A stretch of DNA of 64,000 nucleotides. It comes from a virus. The notes below the pieces were generated by a model, which did not search any database, was not told the DNA's origin, and saw nothing but the letters and a program-made list of their open reading frames with translations. Location: positions 32,001 through 96,000 of the IMG/VR virus record IMGVR_UViG_3300045988_127492; one strand, written 5' to 3'. Within the stretch, counting starts at the first letter, position 1. Every line of letters starts with the position of its first letter. The translations under genes were made by a program, and so were the position numbers. Below, piece by piece: positions 17,568 to 49,283 of the stretch.

Positions 17568-18746
17568 TTAGAAGTCTGTAATAGATACCATCATGTTTTC
17601 AAGTAATTTGATATCCGAATTTTTTTTATCTTCTAAAACATCAGTATAAATATCCATTGTCATTTTTAAGGAAGAGTGCCCAAGATATGCCTGTACTGTC
17701 TTAGGTGGAACACCTGCTTCAAAGCAACGTGTAGCAAATGTGTGTCTAAATGTATGAGTAGTAAAATATGGCATAGGCACTTGATTATTTTTTTTTCGTT
17801 CTTCATTAACCTTATTTATTACTCTTTTTATATTGTTTGTGTATGTAGTTGGATGTATTGGACCATTTAAACTTGAAACAAATAATAGATTTCCGACTAT
17901 ATCTTGGTGTTTTGGAGGATACGGGAGTTGTTGAACCTGTTTCATTTGATCTTGAACTGCTTTCCTGCAAATACTATTCATTGGAACTTGGCGGAAACTT
18001 GCTTTTGTTTTTGGTGGATGAATTTCAAATTCTGTAGTTCCGTTTTTACTTAAATATACAATAGTTTTGTTTACATCAATTACATTGTTTGCAAAATCAA
18101 TATCTTCAAATGTTAGTGAACATAATTCACCACAACGTAACCCTGTATTAATTGCTACAACAAATAAGTTATAATAAAAACTTTCTTTAGCAGCTTGGAA
18201 AAAGTCTTTTTGTTCTTTTACAGGTAAAACATATGTGCGTTGCGATTTTGTACCAGTTACTTTAATTCCTCTAACTGGATTCTGACGACATAAATTATTA
18301 TCTATTGCGTAACTAAACATATTAAATAATTCTGATCTTATATATTCAACACGACTTTTAGACATATTTTTTCCTAAAGTGTTAAAAAAATCTGTTATCA
18401 TTATATTTGTTATAGAAGTTAATGGTGTATTTCCAAAAACTGGCTCAATATGATGTTTGTATGTAGATTTTAATGAAAATATAGATGAAGAACGTAATGT
18501 AGGTTCTTTATACACTCTCATCCATTTTTCATACCACTGCCCCAGCGTCATATTTGGATTAGCTACATTATTCATATTATAGTCATCGACAACCTCAGTC
18601 ATCAAAGCATTTTTAACTTCTTTCAAAGTCTTTCCATACACACATTCACGTTTCCCGAACCTATTTACAAATCGGGCTTGATATCTACCGTCCTTTCTCT
18701 GTGTGATACCTTTTCCAAGTTCTTTACCTTTTAAATCTTTTCCCAT
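17568..18746 (-). CDS. int: Tyrosine integrase (phage integrase family with N-terminal arm-binding domain)
   Basis: HTFRHTFATRCFEAG...LGHSSLKMTMDIYTDV carries the R..H-x-x-R...Y catalytic signature. The N-terminus GITQRKDGRYQARF is arm-binding-like. Confidence 0.9.
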   Translation of the reverse strand: MGKDLKGKELGKGITQRKDGRYQARFVNRFGKRECVYGKTLKEVKNALMTEVVDDYNMNNVANPNMTLGQWYEKWMRVYKEPTLRSSSIFSLKSTYKHHIEPVFGNTPLTSITNIMITDFFNTLGKNMSKSRVEYIRSELFNMFSYAIDNNLCRQNPVRGIKVTGTKSQRTYVLPVKEQKDFFQAAKESFYYNLFVVAINTGLRCGELCSLTFEDIDFANNVIDVNKTIVYLSKNGTTEFEIHPPKTKASFRQVPMNSICRKAVQDQMKQVQQLPYPPKHQDIVGNLLFVSSLNGPIHPTTYTNNIKRVINKVNEERKKNNQVPMPYFTTHTFRHTFATRCFEAGVPPKTVQAYLGHSSLKMTMDIYTDVLEDKKNSDIKLLENMMVSITDF

Positions 18747-30670: not shown

Positions 30671-33235
30671 TTAATCTTCACCCACTTTCTTTCTATCTGT
30701 TTGAGCCAGTATTGTCCCATCACTATAAATTTCTTCAATTTTATTGGTCGTATGAGTATAAACAGTATCTGCATACTTTGTGACAACAAACTGATCCTCA
30801 CGTCTATAGCCGCAAACAATAATTTTGGAACCTCTTTTAAACCAAGATTCTTCCAAAACCTTTTTCTTATCTGCTTTCTGTTCAGAAATTCTTTTGTTAT
30901 AATAGCTGTACTGACCTTTGTTATATTTACAAGTCACTACACAATGATTAGTGAGTAAAGTTACCAGATGTTTGTTGTTATCAGAATCTAAGACAGTTCC
31001 GGCTAATCGAACTATCTGGAACTTAGGAATATGTTTAATTTCTCCTCTGATTCTCCTCGTGATATATTGATATACTTGAGGACTTTCTGGAAGTGAGTTG
31101 TAGTCTACCACTCCATACTTTGCTTCGTTTAAGTTCCATAACTCATGTCTATCAGGATAATAGCTTAATGACTCCATGTCCCACTGTTCCAACGATCCAG
31201 ATGCATAGGTTGCTATTGTAGAATCAAACTTTTTCTGGTTATATAACTGGAGCGTCTCAGGTAAGGCCATATAATCTTTCAATGGTTGTATAAGAGCATC
31301 CCATTCTTTGTTAAATAGCTTCTCTGAAATAATTACTCCATCTCCTTTTGTTCCTACAATACATGTATTGAAATGTTCCATTAAGAATTCTGTTCCTCTT
31401 TCGTCCAATGCAAAATACCTATCATGATATCCTTTTTTAGGTATCTTTTTACCCTCTTCTATTATGTTTTTTAAGAAGAAACTTTCATGCAGTGCATAAG
31501 CTTTAAAATTCTTAATTCTAATCAATATTTCCATCTCTTTGGGGAAGATATCGTATTCTAATGCAGAATTAAATTGCTGCATAGTCAGTTTGTCTGTAGG
31601 TGCGAATACATTACGAGAAAGAAACTTTTTCATTGTTGCCATACGATCTGGAGAATCAAGTTCGTTGAAACATCCAGCTTTAATTAGAATAATCATTTTA
31701 GCTGTACCAATAATTTTAGTATCTACTAAACGCTTACAAAAATCCTCAAATGCACTATATGGTTGATGCTCTACAATAGCACGAGCTATATCATCACCAA
31801 TTCCACAAAGTCCTTTGAATGAGAAAATGATACGATTGTTCTTTTCATCTGGAACAAAGGAAAACTTTGCTTCATTGATAAGAGGTCTGTCTACTGTGAT
31901 TGAGCGTTGCTTAAAATTAGCAATTGCTGAAGCTATCTTTCCATACTTAGTCGATTTATTATCTTCTATCTCTTCATTGGCACCAGCATCAACAATAAGG
32001 TTAGCTGCATTCCAATAAATTAGTGGATAATGATACGCTAAATTCATCTCTTGTACTGCAATAGTTGAATAAGCAACAATATGAGGGAGACTAAAGCTAT
32101 ATCCAAGCTGTTTTCTTATAACTTCGTTCCATACATAATCAAGCATATTGATTCGTGTACCTATCTCTAATCCATGCTTATAAAATTTATCATGTGCTTC
32201 TTTCTGTAGTTTTTTCTTTTTCTTTGCGATACTTTTACGTAAGTAGTTAGCTTCAGTCATAGTAAAATCTGATATGTGTTTATCCATAGATAGTTGCATT
32301 ACTTCTTCTTGCATTGTTGCCATGCCATGAACAGATTTTAAGTATTTCTCTATAATCCCTATTTCATTGGCATTTAACTGATATTTTTGTTTCATACATT
32401 TGTACCATTCATTGATATTGTTTTTATATCTAACAAAAGTATCAATTGGCTGTTCTTCATCTTCTCCTTGTACCATAAGACGCATGGCAGCATTAGCAGT
32501 TCCCAGCTCAGTTAATGATCTAGGCTTAATTGTTTGGATGGCTTTAGCTCCTACTTGAGTCTGAAACTGAAATAAATTTACAATTTCAAGCTTTTCTGCC
32601 ATTTTCCACATCTCTTCTGAGTCATAATCCAACACATCAGGATGTAGATACTTATTATAGGTATCTCTTAAAGTGCCTTGCCATTCTATATATCCATATT
32701 TGACTAAAAAGTCTAAACATAAATGCATAGCGTCTAAATTCTGAATAGTCAGATAATCAAACTTAAGTCCACCACAATAAGAAGAATTATCCATATCCCA
32801 TTGTGTAACAGGTTGTCCATTAGGAGCCTTCATCATTGCATTGTGTTCTAAGTAAGGAGCATCAAATATGATTACTCCACTGGCATGTATTGATCTGCCG
32901 CAAACTAGACCTTCTATTGCCATAGCAGTATCTAATAAACCAGGATATTTCTTACATTCATTTAGAAACTCTGTCGCAGGCTTTACATTATCTTCTTCGT
33001 TACCATATTTCATTTCAGTCAAAGAAGCTGTCTTTCCTCTGGTAACCGGAATCATTCCTGCTAAATATTGTGCTATGTCGTTGTCTATTTTCAACCCCCT
33101 AGCAGTTGTGAGAATCGCTGATTTACTTCCTTCTGTTTTAAATGTACAAATGTTAAGTACTTTATCATATCCATATCTTTTTCTTGTTGCTTCTATAATC
33201 CTTTGCCTTTTTGAGGCTTCTGTATCAATATCTAC
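30671..33235 (-). CDS. dnaE: DNA polymerase III alpha subunit, exon 2
   Basis: The frame is open upstream of the track's start. It reads VDIDTEASKRQRIIEATRKRYGYDKVLNICTFKTEGSKSAI..., which is the continuation expected after the MPD of exon 1. HASGVIIF and LKFDYLTIQNLD motifs are present. Confidence 0.85.
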   Translation of the reverse strand, partial: VDIDTEASKRQRIIEATRKRYGYDKVLNICTFKTEGSKSAILTTARGLKIDNDIAQYLAGMIPVTRGKTASLTEMKYGNEEDNVKPATEFLNECKKYPGLLDTAMAIEGLVCGRSIHASGVIIFDAPYLEHNAMMKAPNGQPVTQWDMDNSSYCGGLKFDYLTIQNLDAMHLCLDFLVKYGYIEWQGTLRDTYNKYLHPDVLDYDSEEMWKMAEKLEIVNLFQFQTQVGAKAIQTIKPRSLTELGTANAAMRLMVQGEDEEQPIDTFVRYKNNINEWYKCMKQKYQLNANEIGIIEKYLKSVHGMATMQEEVMQLSMDKHISDFTMTEANYLRKSIAKKKKKLQKEAHDKFYKHGLEIGTRINMLDYVWNEVIRKQLGYSFSLPHIVAYSTIAVQEMNLAYHYPLIYWNAANLIVDAGANEEIEDNKSTKYGKIASAIANFKQRSITVDRPLINEAKFSFVPDEKNNRIIFSFKGLCGIGDDIARAIVEHQPYSAFEDFCKRLVDTKIIGTAKMIILIKAGCFNELDSPDRMATMKKFLSRNVFAPTDKLTMQQFNSALEYDIFPKEMEILIRIKNFKAYALHESFFLKNIIEEGKKIPKKGYHDRYFALDERGTEFLMEHFNTCIVGTKGDGVIISEKLFNKEWDALIQPLKDYMALPETLQLYNQKKFDSTIATYASGSLEQWDMESLSYYPDRHELWNLNEAKYGVVDYNSLPESPQVYQYITRRIRGEIKHIPKFQIVRLAGTVLDSDNNKHLVTLLTNHCVVTCKYNKGQYSYYNKRISEQKADKKKVLEESWFKRGSKIIVCGYRREDQFVVTKYADTVYTHTTNKIEEIYSDGTILAQTDRKKVGED

Positions 33236-34492
33236 CGAAATACTTTATGTTTCCATAAGGGCTAGACTATATTTTCACCTTCGTCTTTAGCGGTCAGGTG
33301 TTTCATCTTTCAAGTGGTAGCAATCTCCACCTTACTCTCCTTTGAGATAGTCGTTACACATACATCTTGTATAGCACGGTATTACCACAGCTATCTTACG
33401 AAAGACCTTCAGGTTCTCTTAGTCAGCTTATTCGCCTTTGGACAAATGGCTTATAATTGTCATATAAGCAGTCTTAGTTCACTGATACCGTTAGCAGCTT
33501 ATGCCACACCTCTTTGCAATCAGAGTTTATGAAACTTAACACCAAATATTTCTATTCAGCTCGACCCGTTTTAAAATACTCATTTACTAATAACCTATAT
33601 TTCTGATATTTTCTATTCATATAAGTTGTAGCATGTCCATAAAATCTATAGCACATTTCAATTGTTTGCATCGGACCGCCGATATTGAGCGCAAAAATGT
33701 TATCCTTTCTGTCTTTGTATCTTTTGTCTAATTCTATTTTACTTTTACTAAGATAGTCTTTTAGTCCAATTAAAAACTCTTTCGTGCCAGTAAAGCCAAT
33801 GCAAGCATTAATAACTTTGCCATTCCTTATATCAATGGTTATACTTCCGTCACCATCCAAATAGCCACGTATAAAATCATACTTATATTGTTTCGGTACG
33901 ATAGAATCATCTGGAAAAACAAGTTGTTTGGTTTTTTGTTCGATACATCCTTTTTTAATAAGTTGTTGCGCCATATGTTCACTTGTAACCAATACTCGTC
34001 CATAAACAGTATTTTTCTTATATGAGCTATTAGTACTATATATATTTATAGGTCCGGTAAAATTAATATCTTCTTTAAAAGCTTCCAGTCGTTCTTTATC
34101 TTTAATGCTTAAAGAAAGTCCAACTTTTCTATTTCCACACTTTCTTTTAGACACTATGTATCCATCTGCATATAAGAATCCTAACCAATAAGCTTTATGT
34201 TCATTATCTATCGCATCAAAATAATGTTCATTTACAGAATATTTTAAAGCTTGCTCTCTATCTGTTCTTATATGTATGTTGCTCTCTTTTAATTTTTTAG
34301 AAACAGCTTCTGGAGAAGTTTTAATTTCTTTTGCTATATTTGCTATTGATTTTTTATTATCAACATATTGCTCAATAATGTAATTTACACATTCTTGAGA
34401 CCATATTATTCTATTGTTAGAGGTACGTTTAACTTCCATAAGTATCTACCTCCTTTCTTTAGATTTTTATATGAGTATTTTAAATAAGTTGA
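33236..34492 (-). mobile_element. Group I intron (IA2/td-like core) in dnaE carrying a LAGLIDADG ORF
   Basis: Exon 1 ends GAU| and the intron ends UUUCG|. The 3' core UAACGACUAUCUCAAAGGAGAGUAAGG...GAAAAUAUAGUCUAG closely parallels the phage T4 td intron P7-P3'-P8...P7' strands (recalled from memory). Confidence 0.8.
33552..34439 (-). CDS. LAGLIDADG homing endonuclease (intron-encoded, two motifs)
   Basis: YWLGFLYADGYI and FIRGYLDGDGSI motifs; AAAGGAGG RBS. Confidence 0.85.
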   Translation of the reverse strand: MEVKRTSNNRIIWSQECVNYIIEQYVDNKKSIANIAKEIKTSPEAVSKKLKESNIHIRTDREQALKYSVNEHYFDAIDNEHKAYWLGFLYADGYIVSKRKCGNRKVGLSLSIKDKERLEAFKEDINFTGPINIYSTNSSYKKNTVYGRVLVTSEHMAQQLIKKGCIEQKTKQLVFPDDSIVPKQYKYDFIRGYLDGDGSITIDIRNGKVINACIGFTGTKEFLIGLKDYLSKSKIELDKRYKDRKDNIFALNIGGPMQTIEMCYRFYGHATTYMNRKYQKYRLLVNEYFKTGRAE

Positions 34493-35854
34493 ATCTGGCA
34501 TCTCTGGTCTACTGGCATGCAAATGCCTCCACCAAGGGATGTTATATTTTAAAGGATTAATTTGTTGCAAATTTATAAGATATGATATATAAAAAGAAGC
34601 AATAGATCCTCGTGATGGACCAACTAAAGATCCTCCACCATCTTCTGAGTCGTCCCACATCATATTGATAATATCCAATGCTGTAATATAATAAGAAGAA
34701 ACTCTATCATTTAATTTTTCACTGGTTTCCCAGATAGCTCCTAACTCATCATTAATTCTTAACATCATTGATCTTATCTCTTCTTTCGTAAGTGACTCCG
34801 AATATTGCTTTGACCACCATCCATCTTCGATAAGATATAGCAGATATCTATCACTCTTTTCTTTTGAATAAGCAAAATTCTTAATGTAGGGACAAAAATC
34901 ATAAGCTGTTTCAAAAGAGTGGCTCATTGTAAACTCTGGTATTTTAGCCTTAGGTACAATTTGCGTATGATACAAGTCATATTCTTCAACCTTCTCACCA
35001 ATCTCCAAAGAGCACATCAAAGCCTCTTCCACTTCTTCATACCCAAGATAATCCATCCTCTGATGAATTTGTTCATTAGTCATTAGCCAAGTTGATTCAT
35101 AGAAGTCACCTAACTCTCTTTCTTCATCATCGCGGCTATTAAGATAAGCAGCGTGGATTTCTCTATCTTCTTGTTTCAAATAATGGACATCACAAGCAAC
35201 CGTAGCTTTTATTCCTAACTGATGTTTTAGTTTTATAATTTCTCGATTCAGTTTTATCTGTTCTTCTGACAGCCCCGGTTGCATTTCTAAATAGAAATCT
35301 TTGCCAAATAACTGCTGGTTCCATTCGAGAAAAGGCAGGTAATTTTCTCCTGCAAGTAGAGACTTACCTAATTCTCCCCCTAGACATGCTGTTGTTGAAA
35401 TCAGGTGTCCAGGATTAGATTTAACCACACGTTCCAGATCACTCTTCAATGTAGGAACACGTTCCATTCTTCCTGTATAAAAACTATTGTCCCACGCTAA
35501 GGAGCTGAGTTCTCTCAACTGTTTATGACCTACTTCGTCTTTAGCCAAAAGAATGTAATGATAAAATGGTGATTCACAGGATTTCTTACCGTCTTCTGTT
35601 ACATATAATTTATCAATAAGATAAATTTCATTACCAAGGATACCTTTGAAATCCTCCGGTAATTCACCGGAAGACTTCATGGCTTTAATTGTTTGAATAA
35701 ATCTCACATGACCAGATACAGATTCATGGTCAGTGATAGCAACTCCTGAAAGTCCAAGAGATGCTGCTTGTTTTATTAATTGAGGTACTTTTACAATACA
35801 ATCCAACATACGAAGCTGACTAAATTCTGTATGTGCATGTGTCTCTATTCTCAC
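34493..35854 (-). CDS. dnaE: DNA polymerase III alpha subunit, exon 1 (PHP domain and start of the palm)
   Basis: THAHTEFS...ITDHESVSG is the PHP domain. GPSRGSIASFYISYLINLQQINPLKYNIPWWRHLHASRPEMPD ends at the conserved PD(I/V)DID active-site block. Confidence 0.85.
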
Positions 35855-46033: not shown

Positions 46034-46392
46034 TTAACTCCTCCTAAACTAACAATCCACTTTTTTACTTTTCCATTATCATAGGTTTTAGTGATTAGTG
46101 TAGCCTGAACAGTTTCACCAATTCTTCCATGGTACTTTTTATATGTATCTGAGTCTGTTAATGAATATTCAACACCATCATAATTAACAGTTATTTCGTA
46201 TTCAGCATAATCTGTGTATAATTGAGGTTTCCCAGCGATAAACGTAATATGACTTTCTTCTGGTTTATAGTATTCATTTGTAATAGTTGCCTTTACAGTT
46301 TCAGTTTTCTTATTAATACACTTAGTACATCCAGTTAATGTTGAAATGCTTACTAACAAGACTCCTAAAATGTTAATAAATTTCTTTTTCAT
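46030..46392 (-). CDS. Lipoprotein
   Basis: Signal peptide with the lipobox LTGC. Confidence 0.6.
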   Translation of the reverse strand: MKKKFINILGVLLVSISTLTGCTKCINKKTETVKATITNEYYKPEESHITFIAGKPQLYTDYAEYEITVNYDGVEYSLTDSDTYKKYHGRIGETVQATLITKTYDNGKVKKWIVSLGGVK

Positions 46393-46577
46393 AGTTTTAT
46401 ACCTGTATTAGAACTTGGTGTTACATTAGTTAAAGTCCAATCTTTTTGATCTCCATAAGGATAAGGGCTATATTTTACAACATTATCCTCAGTAGTCTCT
46501 GTTCTTGTTGTTTCTTCAATAAGATGACCTTCCTTGTCATATTTCTTAGTTGTTTCAGTAACCGTAGTTTTTGTCAT
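46389..46577 (-). CDS. Small Thr/Glu-rich hypothetical protein
   Basis: The ATG at 46577 follows AAGGAGGACAGT. Confidence 0.45.
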   Translation of the reverse strand: MTKTTVTETTKKYDKEGHLIEETTRTETTEDNVVKYSPYPYGDQKDWTLTNVTPSSNTGIKL

Positions 46578-46592
46578 ACTGTCCTCCTTATA

Positions 46593-46621
46593 TTGACAAA
46601 TCACCTCACCTAAAGTACAAT
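46593..46621 (+). promoter_or_regulatory. Near-consensus sigma-A-type promoter on the + strand
   Basis: TTGACA (46593-46598), a 17-nt spacer, then TACAAT (46616-46621). Confidence 0.5.
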
Positions 46622-46720
46622 ATACTTACCGGTCCCAGAGTGGATTCGGGTGAGGATCTTCTGAATGGGTAATGTGACATGGGACCGTTCCACACATTAT
46701 TTTTGAAGGAGGTGTTGCCT

Positions 46721-46861
46721 ATGGCAGCAGATATTATAACTATTCTTACTTGCTTTGGCCCTACATTACAATTTATAGCTATTAACGTTATCCTTGCCTT
46801 ACGCACCCACCTACTTCATTTACTGACGCAAAATACCTACACTACCGTCAATATGGTATAG
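46721..46861 (+). CDS. 46-aa hydrophobic peptide, candidate type I toxin (holin-like-toxin type)
   Basis: GAAGGAGGTG RBS 7 nt before the ATG. Sequence MAADIITILTCFGPTLQFIAINVILALRTHLLHLLTQNTYTTVNMV. It runs opposite to all flanking genes, and its roughly 90-nt leader can form the ACCGGUCCCA/UGGGACCGUU stem. Confidence 0.4.
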   Translation: MAADIITILTCFGPTLQFIAINVILALRTHLLHLLTQNTYTTVNMV

Positions 46862-46896
46862 ATCCACTGTTCTGTTACTATACGTTACCCTCATTC

Positions 46897-47862
46897 TTAT
46901 TTATTCTCAACAGTTGCTACATCATCAGATGTCAAATCACCTGCATCAATGATAGTCGCGGCATTTCCACCCTGTACTTTTGGCACACTACCATTCCACT
47001 TATCAATTTTCTGTTTTTCAATAAGTTCTGGAGTAAGTGATTCTGCAATCTTTTTATTTGCTTCCGCTTCGGCAGCGGCTTTAATACGTGTTGCTTCAGC
47101 TTTACCTTCGGCAGTGATCTTAGTCTGTTCTGCTTCAATAGCAGCTTTCTCTTTATCTTGCTCTGCCGCAATAAGAGCTACTTCTTTATCCTTATCAGCC
47201 TGTACTTTTGCAGTTTTTGCTTCAATGTTTGCAAGTTCCAATTCCTGCTGTGCATTTACTTTCTTCTGAATTGCTGCTTGAGTTTCATCATCAGTAGAAA
47301 TTGAAGTAAAGTTTACAGTGTCAATAATAATTCCGTATGGCTCAAACTTCTGTTTCAGGTATACATCGAGCGCCTCATTCAGTTCCTGTCTTTTATCTCC
47401 AAATACATCTGTAACTGGATATTTCGCTGTTACTTCCTGTGTCCAAGCTTTCATTTTAGGTTTAATAAAAGTATTCTTAACTGATTCTCCGGACTGGCCT
47501 TTAAACTGAGTAAATACATCAGTTACACGATCCTGATCAAACTTGTAAGAAAACTCTAAGTTCACAAGTAAAGATTTACCATCAGCTGTGGGGGTTTTAA
47601 AACTCTCATCTTTTGGGGAATCACCTTTATCTTCCGATGTCAGATAAGACTGTTCAATACCAATTGAATACAAAGAAGTACTAATTGTTGGTGAGATTAC
47701 ATGCCAACCTTGACTAAGAGTATCTCCACTGATACCACCATTTAAGTGATATTCAACTGCCACATAACCTGCCGGAACTCTCACACTACATTTTGCTACA
47801 CAAATCAATCCAGCTACAATTGCCACTGCTAATCCTACGCCGCCTAATAATCCTCTTTTCAT
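46897..47862 (-). CDS. SPFH/band-7 (prohibitin-like) membrane protein
   Basis: N-terminal TM helix, a band-7 core (VRVPAGYVAV...IIIDTVNFTSI) and a C-terminal Ala/Glu/Lys coiled coil. Confidence 0.8.
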   Translation of the reverse strand: MKRGLLGGVGLAVAIVAGLICVAKCSVRVPAGYVAVEYHLNGGISGDTLSQGWHVISPTISTSLYSIGIEQSYLTSEDKGDSPKDESFKTPTADGKSLLVNLEFSYKFDQDRVTDVFTQFKGQSGESVKNTFIKPKMKAWTQEVTAKYPVTDVFGDKRQELNEALDVYLKQKFEPYGIIIDTVNFTSISTDDETQAAIQKKVNAQQELELANIEAKTAKVQADKDKEVALIAAEQDKEKAAIEAEQTKITAEGKAEATRIKAAAEAEANKKIAESLTPELIEKQKIDKWNGSVPKVQGGNAATIIDAGDLTSDDVATVENK

Positions 47863-48283: not shown

Positions 48284-48442
48284 CTATTTATCTCCTTTAT
48301 GTTCTTTAATATCATTTACGAGTGTCCAAGTGAAAAAGATTACCAACATGAAACAAAGTAAATTTTTATAAGTAATAAGATCTACTAATGATATTGCTAT
48401 AAAAATAGCATCAAGGATGATAAAAAATTTGTCAAACTTCAT
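48284..48442 (-). CDS. Small membrane protein (52 aa)
   Basis: MKFDKFFIILDAIFIAISLVDLITYKNLLCFMLVIFFTWTLV... Confidence 0.4.
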   Translation of the reverse strand: MKFDKFFIILDAIFIAISLVDLITYKNLLCFMLVIFFTWTLVNDIKEHKGDK

Positions 48443-48857
48443 TTAATTCATCCCTTACTCTCATAAGTATCTTCCCAAGCCTATTTTCTCCAACTCCATC
48501 TACGGTTCCCCAAATGGCATCTCCCCAAGTATTACCCTCTTCCAGGTGCTCGTCACCTGTGGCAAGTAATTTTTCCTTAAGGTCTGGATTCTGAGTAAAT
48601 TTAGCCAGTACGATTTCATACATTACTTTATCTTTTACTTCTTCCCAATCTGATCTCAAATCAATCTTTCTACCTACTGCCTTTGCCTCTGATGGACTAG
48701 CTTGAGAAAATAACTGGAATTTTAGTCTACGATTTTTTGTTTTCTGTGCTTGAAAAGCTGCTTCATTATTTGTATAGTCCCATCCGTTATAACTTACCGG
48801 TGCCATATAAAAGTTACTTAAAAAGTAATAATCTCCAGTAAAACTATTAATCATTCT
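48432..48857 (-). CDS. NADAR (YbiA/DUF1768) family protein
   Basis: The ATG at 48857 follows GGAAGGAG. Motifs FLSNFY...NNEAAFQAQK...GDAIWG. Confidence 0.7.
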   Translation of the reverse strand, partial: RMINSFTGDYYFLSNFYMAPVSYNGWDYTNNEAAFQAQKTKNRRLKFQLFSQASPSEAKAVGRKIDLRSDWEEVKDKVMYEIVLAKFTQNPDLKEKLLATGDEHLEEGNTWGDAIWGTVDGVGENRLGKILMRVRDELNEV

Positions 48858-48867
48858 TTCTCCTTCC

Positions 48868-49050
48868 CTAATAATCACTACAAGTTACTGTTAAACTTAC
48901 GAATCCATCATCTTGTTCAAAAGATGCCATAAGCTCATCTTTTACCAATTCTTCTACTATGTCTCTATCAGTTATTTTTACTCCAATCAATTCAGGATCA
49001 GTCAAGTTGTATTCAGCTTCTACAGTGATCACTCTTTTTGTTGGTATCAA
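48868..49050 (-). CDS. Hypothetical protein (start uncertain)
   Basis: The frame stays open for about 40 codons upstream of the TTG start and contains no ATG. Confidence 0.3.
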   Translation of the reverse strand: MIPTKRVITVEAEYNLTDPELIGVKITDRDIVEELVKDELMASFEQDDGFVSLTVTCSDY

Positions 49051-49198
49051 AATTTCTTTCTCACATGCATCATCAATTGGTTTATTTAATATTCTTTTTC
49101 CTCTTTGCGTAATACCACCTCCATATTTTATTTCATTGTTTAACCTCCTTAAGTGTAGGTGAGGAATTGAACCTCACCTTAACCTTTTGTTACTACAC

Positions 49199-49282
49199 TT
49201 ATTTTCTTTTCCCTACAAAGAACCCAACTAAAAAACAGGTTAATAAGCATACCGCAAACACGCCTATATTCAACACTATCAT
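49199..49282 (-). CDS. 27-aa hydrophobic peptide
   Basis: MIVLNIGVFAVCLLTCFLVGFFVGKRK, starting 1 nt after the PspA-like stop. Confidence 0.3.
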   Translation of the reverse strand: MIVLNIGVFAVCLLTCFLVGFFVGKRK

Positions 49283-49283
49283 T

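Follow-up and report, generated by a model that had tools for sequence, protein, structure and literature searches.

Introduction

Type I toxin–antitoxin systems typically have long 5' untranslated regions (5' UTRs) and sequester the ribosome-binding site, and no sequence homology connects their toxin families (PMC8309996, PMC6563280); the membrane-associated toxins among them are hydrophobic, shorter than 60 aa and predicted to contain an alpha-helical transmembrane (TM) domain (PMC8309996). SPbeta carries type I loci, bsrG/SR4 and yonT/SR6 (PMC5848175, PMC3531473). Here, we describe a 306-nt cassette on the plus strand (46588–46893) of a 64,000-nt stretch of viral DNA (IMG/VR record IMGVR_UViG_3300045988_127492, positions 32,001–96,000), the whole of which is called the window. 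An initial annotation of this DNA had proposed the region as a candidate type I toxin–antitoxin locus. What we find is an orphan, conserved small-gene cassette with a type I toxin-like design, oriented against the minus-strand operon that surrounds it; membership of the type I class is not established, as there is no family match, no antitoxin gene and no conserved end of the open reading frame (ORF).

A close likeness is to bsrG/SR4 and yonT/SR6 (PMC5848175, PMC3531473, PMC8309996). The host element is again large, temperate and SPbeta-like, with a DNA polymerase closest to YorL of the SPbeta/phi3T Bacillus phages (43.6% amino-acid identity), and the cassette would encode a small hydrophobic single-TM peptide from its own SigA-type promoter, with the Shine–Dalgarno (SD) sequence in a base-paired region and an overlapping antisense transcript that is expected to be an RNase III substrate. 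Nevertheless, four differences separate them. The first is the lack of sequence similarity: a tblastn search of the peptide against 50,697 GenBank phage records, SPbeta included, returned nothing relevant at E<=10. The second is that the cassette has no separate antitoxin promoter or gene. The third concerns the ORF, whose end and tail are not conserved, and the fourth the position, since the cassette is squeezed in antisense between two operon genes that share a direction, an upstream SPFH/Band 7 gene and a downstream 62-aa gene, p62.

The type I modules of Clostridioides difficile phiCD630-1 and phiCD630-2 are similar in belonging to gut Firmicute prophages, in their orphan toxins, which have no homology to other families, in their long 5' UTRs, and in the long complementarity with a convergent RNA (PMC7699646, PMC6563280). 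Their toxins, however, are 34–53 aa long with defined ends and are countered by a dedicated convergent antitoxin small RNA (sRNA) with its own promoter (PMC7699646, PMC6563280), whereas the only candidate antisense RNA of the cassette is a polycistronic mRNA. In hok/Sok and aapA1/IsoA1, which are Gram-negative systems unrelated to the cassette in sequence, mRNA folding controls translation, and a possible 5'–3' pairing in the cassette recalls this (PMC8309996, PMC6563280); unlike theirs, that pairing is without covariation and is broken in two relatives (L089/L159), and the cassette is not known to undergo 3' processing. A different kind of element also invites comparison. Phage morons are autonomous promoter–gene units inserted between operon genes, as in lambdoid and HK97-type phages. 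Like them, the cassette has a host-type promoter, sits between conserved genes, shows presence/absence polymorphism and would encode a small membrane protein; unlike them, it lacks a terminator, faces against the operon and has a long, conserved, structured leader.

Results

Promoter and translation start

Homologues of the cassette were found on 18 viral and 32 metagenome contigs and yielded ~33 distinct sequences of 84–100% identity, among which the window copy is the most divergent. Relatives are human-gut contigs of 80–310 kb from IMG/VR and ENA. Single relatives are denoted by labels such as L010, and the invariance of the hexamers, SD and ATG refers to 31 unique variants. The features that define the cassette as a gene are as follows.

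46588–46893, plus strand: whole conserved cassette, with constant borders between CTCC and TTATATTGACA on the left and after ACGTTACCCTCA on the right.
46593–46621, plus strand: sigma-70/SigA-type promoter, TTGACA (46593–46598), 17-nt spacer and TACAAT (46616–46621), score 11/12.
46705–46723, plus strand: SD GAAGGAGGTG (46705–46714), 6-nt spacer and ATG (46721).
46721–46861, plus strand: ORF, 46 aa in the window, with conserved codons 1–32 (46721–46816), one TM helix and a coding signature.

The promoter elements named in the initial annotation are present exactly as described, and their score of 11/12 is the best of any promoter-like site between 44 and 50 kb of the window. Within the 64 kb, this is the sole site that matches TTGACA-N17-TANAAT without mismatch; a lone exact match over such a length is not significant by itself, and we regard the features as real because of the pattern of conservation across the ~33 variants. 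Both hexamers are invariant while three positions of the promoter spacer vary; likewise, the SD sequence and the ATG are invariant, and the nucleotides between them occur as TTGCCT, TTACCT or TTGCTT. Fixed elements with variable sequence between them are what one would expect of a functional promoter and start of translation. Transcription would begin at about 46628. Two details needed correction: the distance from the ribosome-binding site to the ATG is 6 nt and not 7, and the CACCTC motif complementary to that site, which does lie outside the predicted RNA, occupies 46602–46607, one base from the position first given, and falls in the promoter spacer.

One relative has a natural deletion of ~95 nt in this region. 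In L163 (OHCZ01014662.1, around 516–520), the segment equivalent to window ~46535–46631 is missing, and with it the plus-strand promoter, the first leader bases and the p62 start, whereas the ORF and the remainder of the cassette are preserved. This allele, seen in one short contig only, resembles a spontaneous promoter knock-out.

The predicted peptide

Positions 46721–46861 encode precisely the 46-aa peptide that had been reported, and its best 19-aa Kyte–Doolittle window of 1.84 fits one TM helix; this is the single hydrophobic stretch, and the net charge of the peptide is 0. Conservation is concentrated in the first ~32 codons, where the variants share the pattern MAADIITILTCFGPTLQF[IV][AV][IV]NVIL[AT]LR[TS]HL. 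To quantify it, distinct differences from the consensus were counted in codons 1–31 and compared with transition-matched random changes. We observed 11 synonymous, 11 mostly conservative non-synonymous (mean BLOSUM62 +0.8) and 0 stop changes; at least 11 synonymous changes arose in 1.3% of the random trials (P=0.013), and the observed BLOSUM mean in 0.5% (P=0.005). The frame of the ORF is the best of six, the five others all scoring worse over these codons. Furthermore, codons 1–32 are free of indels apart from one contig at 1.6x coverage.

Beyond codon 32 this pattern is lost. Here the tails are thrown into three frames by indels of 2 and 3 nt and by insertions of 16 and 36–37 nt, and the ORF lengths among the variants are 45, 46, 51, 61, 100 and 182–184 aa; as the stop is not conserved, reading from this ATG gives 100–184 aa in most relatives, and the longest forms merely run antisense through the SPFH gene. 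The tail changes in both frame and length; a TM segment of ~32 aa is thus under protein-level selection, and the remaining ORF is not. In the comparison of peptide with RNA-structure conservation that the initial annotation had called for, a protein-level pattern holds for codons 1–31 and fails for the tail, and the pairing of the leader is conserved too.

A 66-aa ORF on the minus strand (46606–46806) was considered and rejected. It shares its wobble positions with the plus-strand ORF, has no start codon in the relatives (CTG) and shows non-conservative replacements.

No relative of the peptide outside this clade was found in the protein searches. Neither Pfam nor NCBIfam gave a match to four peptide variants at E<=10, PHROGs and PADLOC gave none to the peptide, and blastn of the locus against GenBank phages was equally without a match. 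A phmmer search of 1.84 billion representatives returned five clusters only, all of them copies of this cassette, and a search of 5.8 billion proteins again found nothing but its copies; public protein sets hold the ORF as five unrelated-looking clusters of 51–182 aa. The resemblance of the N-terminus to holin-like toxins that had been noted is therefore unsupported, as not even a match at E<=10 was seen in Pfam or NCBIfam, and a kinship with TxpA or BsrG finds no backing either, with no similarity to these or to any other toxin family in Pfam, NCBIfam or tblastn.

RNA structure of the two strands

The leader measures ~92 nt. The pairing elements of the cassette are listed below; H1 and H2 can be drawn on either strand.

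46630–46687, plus strand: P1, the 5'-terminal stem, CGGTCCCA (46630–46637) with TGGGACCG (46680–46687), enclosing the leader core.
46647–46675, plus strand: leader core, 29 nt, CGGGTGAGGATCTTCTGAATGGGTAATGT, with invariant columns in alignment A2.
46808–46818, plus strand: internal anti-SD beginning CACCT, pairing with 46704–46714.
46822–46852, either strand: hairpin H1, ACTGACG/CGTCAAT (46822–46828 with 46846–46852), whose loop takes a 16-nt insertion in some variants.
46856–46883, either strand: hairpin H2, GTATAG/CTATAC, whose loop takes a 36–37-nt insertion.

P1 stands at the extreme 5' end of the predicted RNA, a geometry that survives a 3-nt indel located between stem and −10 box. A leader stem of 9–10 bp had been proposed; the stem exists, with 8 contiguous pairs. 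It is paired in 100% of cells on the plus strand versus 76.6% on the minus strand, and five of its pairs vary, including a change from G-C to A-U and several through G-U. The leader core that it encloses is the most conserved stretch of the whole cassette. The helix between SD and anti-SD, which is also recovered by RNAalifold, is paired in 97.6% of cells on the plus strand versus 78.6% on the minus strand. Set beside the long 5' UTRs and occluded ribosome-binding sites of type I systems, the cassette offers the ~92-nt leader, P1 with covariation and this well-paired SD helix; the predicted SD accessibility of the window copy is, however, ordinary (below).

Towards the 3' end, large insertions are confined to the loops of H1 and H2. 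H2 shows two Watson–Crick compensatory changes, G-C to U-A and G-C to A-U. H1 behaves differently, being paired in 96.8% of cells on the plus strand versus 100% on the minus strand, because three independent G-to-A changes (in the window copy, L002/L180 and L089/L159) give a mismatch on the former and a G-U pair on the latter. This hints that H1, unlike P1, may function in the operon-sense RNA, which would be structured here too. RNAalifold further recovers a 5'–3' pairing between GGGUAAUGU (46667–46675) and ACGUUACCC (46882–46890), the one mentioned above as lacking covariation and disrupted in L089/L159.

Two observations stand apart from these. A subgroup that includes L001, L083, L086, L091 and L095 carries the 16-nt insertion TATTCGCTGTTTTTTC in the H1 loop (~46839) together with a 36–37-nt insertion with the palindrome CTGTAATTACAG in the H2 loop (~46871), and these insertions shorten the ORF to 51 aa. 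An alternative leader hairpin, TGTGATA/TATCACA, is favoured by free energy in the relatives and is broken in the window and L151; by comparison across the variants P1 is the better model, and the hairpin was set aside.

The strand on which each helix pairs bears on a minus-strand explanation, raised in the initial annotation, in which the spacer is a cis-regulatory leader or riboswitch for the downstream envelope genes. The spacer does lie in the operon mRNA directly upstream of p62, H1 pairs fully on that strand, and a pairing CCUCACCC/AGGUGAGG is possible just upstream of the p62 SD. Yet both P1 and the SD helix are less well paired when read on the minus strand, and the downstream gene is a different one in L001/L083 and in L179 while the cassette is unchanged. 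Rfam lends no support: at the gathering threshold there was no match in the 64 kb, on both strands, an insertion-bearing variant was likewise without one, and at E<=10 the region gave only two eukaryotic long non-coding RNA (lncRNA) matches (E 3.1 and 9.3), which we treat as chance. Such a leader would moreover leave unexplained the invariant −35, −10, SD and ATG of the plus strand with their variable spacers. We disfavour it as very improbable; the plus-strand-specific pairing of the leader contradicts it, and one 3' hairpin, H1, does pair better on its strand.

The structures also allow the plus-strand RNA to be read as a regulator in its own right. The transcript, or the act of transcribing it, could act as a cis-antisense brake, so that the lipoprotein and phosphoesterase genes downstream are no longer coupled to the SPFH side of the operon, and the short ORF could do no more than load ribosomes and stabilise the RNA. 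In line with this, the non-coding parts are the most conserved (a promoter at 97% identity between the window and L010, the 29-nt core, and hairpins H1 and H2), frameshifts are tolerated in the ORF tail, 4 nt separate the −35 box from the p62 SD, and structure-preserving changes occur on both strands, in P1 on the plus strand and in H1 on the minus strand. The coding signature weakens this brake, as codons 1–31 and no other frame bear a protein-level pattern at the P values given above; the near absence of indels from codons 1–32 and the canonical SD–ATG spacing point the same way. We judge this explanation, brake and accessory ORF together, to be quite unlikely.

Place in the operon and modularity

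The cassette fills a spacer of ~320 nt that extends from the stop codon of the SPFH gene to the start of p62.

46389–46577, minus strand: p62, downstream operon gene, 62 aa, with its own SD at 46582–46589.
46897–47862, minus strand: SPFH/Band 7 gene, upstream operon gene (Pfam PF01145, E 9e-21).

The stop codon of the SPFH gene is 3 nt from one border, and the SD of p62 abuts the −35 box, 4 nt apart. The genes around it are all envelope-related and encode the SPFH protein, a PspA/IM30-like protein, a lipoprotein with a lipobox and small TM proteins. The GC content of the cassette (0.42–0.43) exceeds that on the left (~0.33), but the SPFH gene on the right has 0.38–0.42, and the enrichment noted in the initial annotation is modest. 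Nor does the minus-strand block have just this one sizeable gap in its coding, as had been stated, since 33095–33551 (457 nt) and 49051–49283 (233 nt) are also without minus-strand ORFs.

The cassette behaves as a module. On its left, the flanking gene is replaced in L001/L083 and in L179; on its right, a crAss001_48-like gene takes the place of SPFH in L086, L089, L091, L095, L154, L159 and L171; in every case the cassette is unchanged and its borders are the same. More distant phages share the SPFH or the lipoprotein gene without the cassette, and the neighbours then abut directly; no divergent copies were found near the SPFH or lipoprotein homologues of these phages. Between the window and L010, the identity is 97% in the promoter, 83% in the leader, 86% in the ORF and 90% at the 3' end, against 68–90% in the flanking genes (p52 68%, lipo120 73%, p81 73%, p62 80%, SPFH 82%, phosphoesterase 85%, crAss001_48-like 90%); by these values, the spacer is about as conserved as the genes that flank it. 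A miniature transposable element was considered and rejected, as neither terminal inverted repeats nor a target-site duplication was found at the cassette ends and the flanks differ by gene replacement, not by movement of the cassette.

Another explanation is a moron expressed in lysogeny. The product would then be a harmless small inner-membrane protein, made from the prophage by the host polymerase and shut off by convergent lytic transcription, with no toxin or antitoxin involved; superinfection exclusion, membrane protection and lysogenic conversion are examples of suggested roles. An autonomous SigA promoter with a strong SD, a temperate phage with an integrase, presence that varies among related phages, a GC content slightly above that of the left neighbours and a wholly envelope-related neighbourhood all suit it, as does a tolerance for long junk C-terminal extensions, and so does the failure to find an antitoxin promoter. 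If the operon is silent in lysogens, the timing is better for a moron than for a toxin. Measured against the usual promoter–gene–terminator unit of deviant composition, the cassette has the promoter and the presence/absence polymorphism, but a terminator of its own was not found in three flank contexts and the shift in GC is modest. The ~90-nt leader is conserved as much as or more than the peptide, and together with the SD/anti-SD pairing and the 5'-terminal stem it would be an unusual investment for a simple constitutive moron. Finally, a 23-mer from the leader core occurs in 0 of 185,579 species-representative genomes, so there is as yet no evidence of carriage in prophages. We hold this explanation to be as live as that of a toxin, and less likely than not.

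Candidate antisense partner and antitoxin

Scans in the three flank contexts, the window and two others, found no terminator-like site on either strand in or beside the cassette, and none after SPFH; p62 has no promoter-like site on the minus strand. With no sigma-70-type promoter between the cassette and the downstream genes, their transcripts would have to cross the cassette and be fully antisense to it, and since neither strand has a terminator, any operon transcript that reaches those genes would be complementary to the entire cassette mRNA. Read-through of the operon with full antisense overlap, as envisaged in the initial annotation, is thus plausible, since the scans saw neither a promoter nor a terminator motif on the operon strand at the island or next to it. 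As the searches gave neither an antitoxin promoter nor a terminator nor a trans-complementary RNA, the read-through operon mRNA is the sole candidate for the antisense partner.

Several points weigh against the cassette being a toxin under antisense control. A dedicated antitoxin gene, which a type I system has in cis or in trans, was not found: the operon strand carries no promoter-like site in or beside the cassette in any of the three flank contexts, and trans-complementary sequences in the 64 kb amount to chance 10–12-mers. The scans addressed sigma-70-type promoters, and phage-specific ones (for example of a YonO-type polymerase) fall outside them. If the operon is silent in lysogens, no antisense RNA would be present just when the SigA promoter is expected to fire. 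The peptide has no conserved cationic C-terminus among the variants, and the end of its ORF is not conserved; type I membrane toxins are usually <60 aa, and although the window ORF has 46 aa and a hydropathy of 1.84, most relatives have 100–184 aa, of which 32 are conserved. At the RNA level, H1 pairs better on the minus strand, and single-sequence folds are unexceptional (z = −1.2 on the plus strand and −1.7 on the minus strand). For the window copy, an SD accessibility of 0.28 is predicted, which places it at the 26th percentile of 19 control genes, and in the relatives the values are 0.06–0.1; occlusion of the SD is plausible by these predictions and not distinctive.

The host phage

The phage is regarded as temperate because it encodes a tyrosine-type integrase (17568–18746, minus strand; phrog_1, E 2.9e-77); it also has its own replication genes. 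Type I toxins of Bacillus prophages had been pointed to in the initial annotation, and the integrase and the YorL-like polymerase place the gene in a temperate SPbeta-like phage; the sequence points to a large uncultured SPbeta-like phage of a gut Firmicute as the source. Neither peptide patterns nor the leader-core 23-mer matched any of the 185,579 species-representative genomes of GTDB, so no host or prophage is assigned. Synteny with yonS–yonT of SPbeta was considered and rejected: the SPFH protein finds its best matches not in SPbeta but in Staphylococcus phages and Bastille-like Bacillus phages, and SPbeta lacks a homologue of the phosphoesterase.

Elsewhere in the window, a group I intron appears to split the phage DNA polymerase gene at the gap 33095–33551 (457 nt). 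An Rfam RF00028 match lies at 33243–33494 on the minus strand (29.5 bits, below the gathering score of 50; E 1.7e-5), and the surrounding ORFs are at 30671–33094, 33552–34439 and 34406–35854, all on the minus strand. A 295-aa ORF beside the intron has two LAGLIDADG-like motifs (LGFLYADGYI and IRGYLDGDGSI) and is probably a homing endonuclease. The other gap, 49051–49283, has the PspA/IM30-like gene on one side and the next small gene on the other. A NADAR-domain protein (48432–48878, minus strand) gave a match (E 1e-15) to PDC-M42C, a candidate defence model of PADLOC.

Discussion

Taken as a gene, the cassette could work as follows. A host SigA-type promoter would start an RNA at ~46628, the first bases of which would fold into P1 and protect the 5' end. 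After a conserved leader of ~90 nt, a near-perfect SD would be followed by the ORF, only the first ~32 codons of which, with one TM helix, would be selected as protein. The SD could be occluded by an upstream AUCUUC and by the internal CACCU anti-SD. The operon transcript and the cassette mRNA may then regulate one another by forming duplexes, by RNase III cleavage and by transcriptional interference, and the part of an antitoxin may be taken by the operon read-through RNA or by a stable fragment of it with H1 and H2.

These steps do not carry equal weight. That the cassette is a transcribed and translated small membrane-peptide gene is, in our view, probable. That it works as a toxin controlled by the antisense operon RNA is a tentative proposal, with the odds leaning slightly against it. 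That it forms a type I-like module altogether without an antitoxin gene, in which the polycistronic mRNA or a stable SPFH 3'-UTR fragment with H1 and H2, hairpins that pair perfectly on the operon strand only, is the antitoxin, seems unlikely. Were this last arrangement true, the peptide would be made only when transcription of the operon stops, which would tie its synthesis firmly to whether a large gut prophage is in lysogeny or lysis, and a single 306-nt spacer would hold RNA structures under selection on each of its strands.

The meaning of the cassette would depend on what the peptide does. If it is toxic, it would represent a family of orphan type I toxins carried by uncultured SPbeta-like phages in the human gut and controlled by operon read-through in place of a dedicated sRNA; annotation pipelines should then look for a wider range of loci. 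If it is non-toxic, the cassette would be a clean, well-delimited and conserved small membrane-protein gene that gene callers have mis-annotated, and it would still be a case of obligatory sense/antisense overlap within a phage operon.

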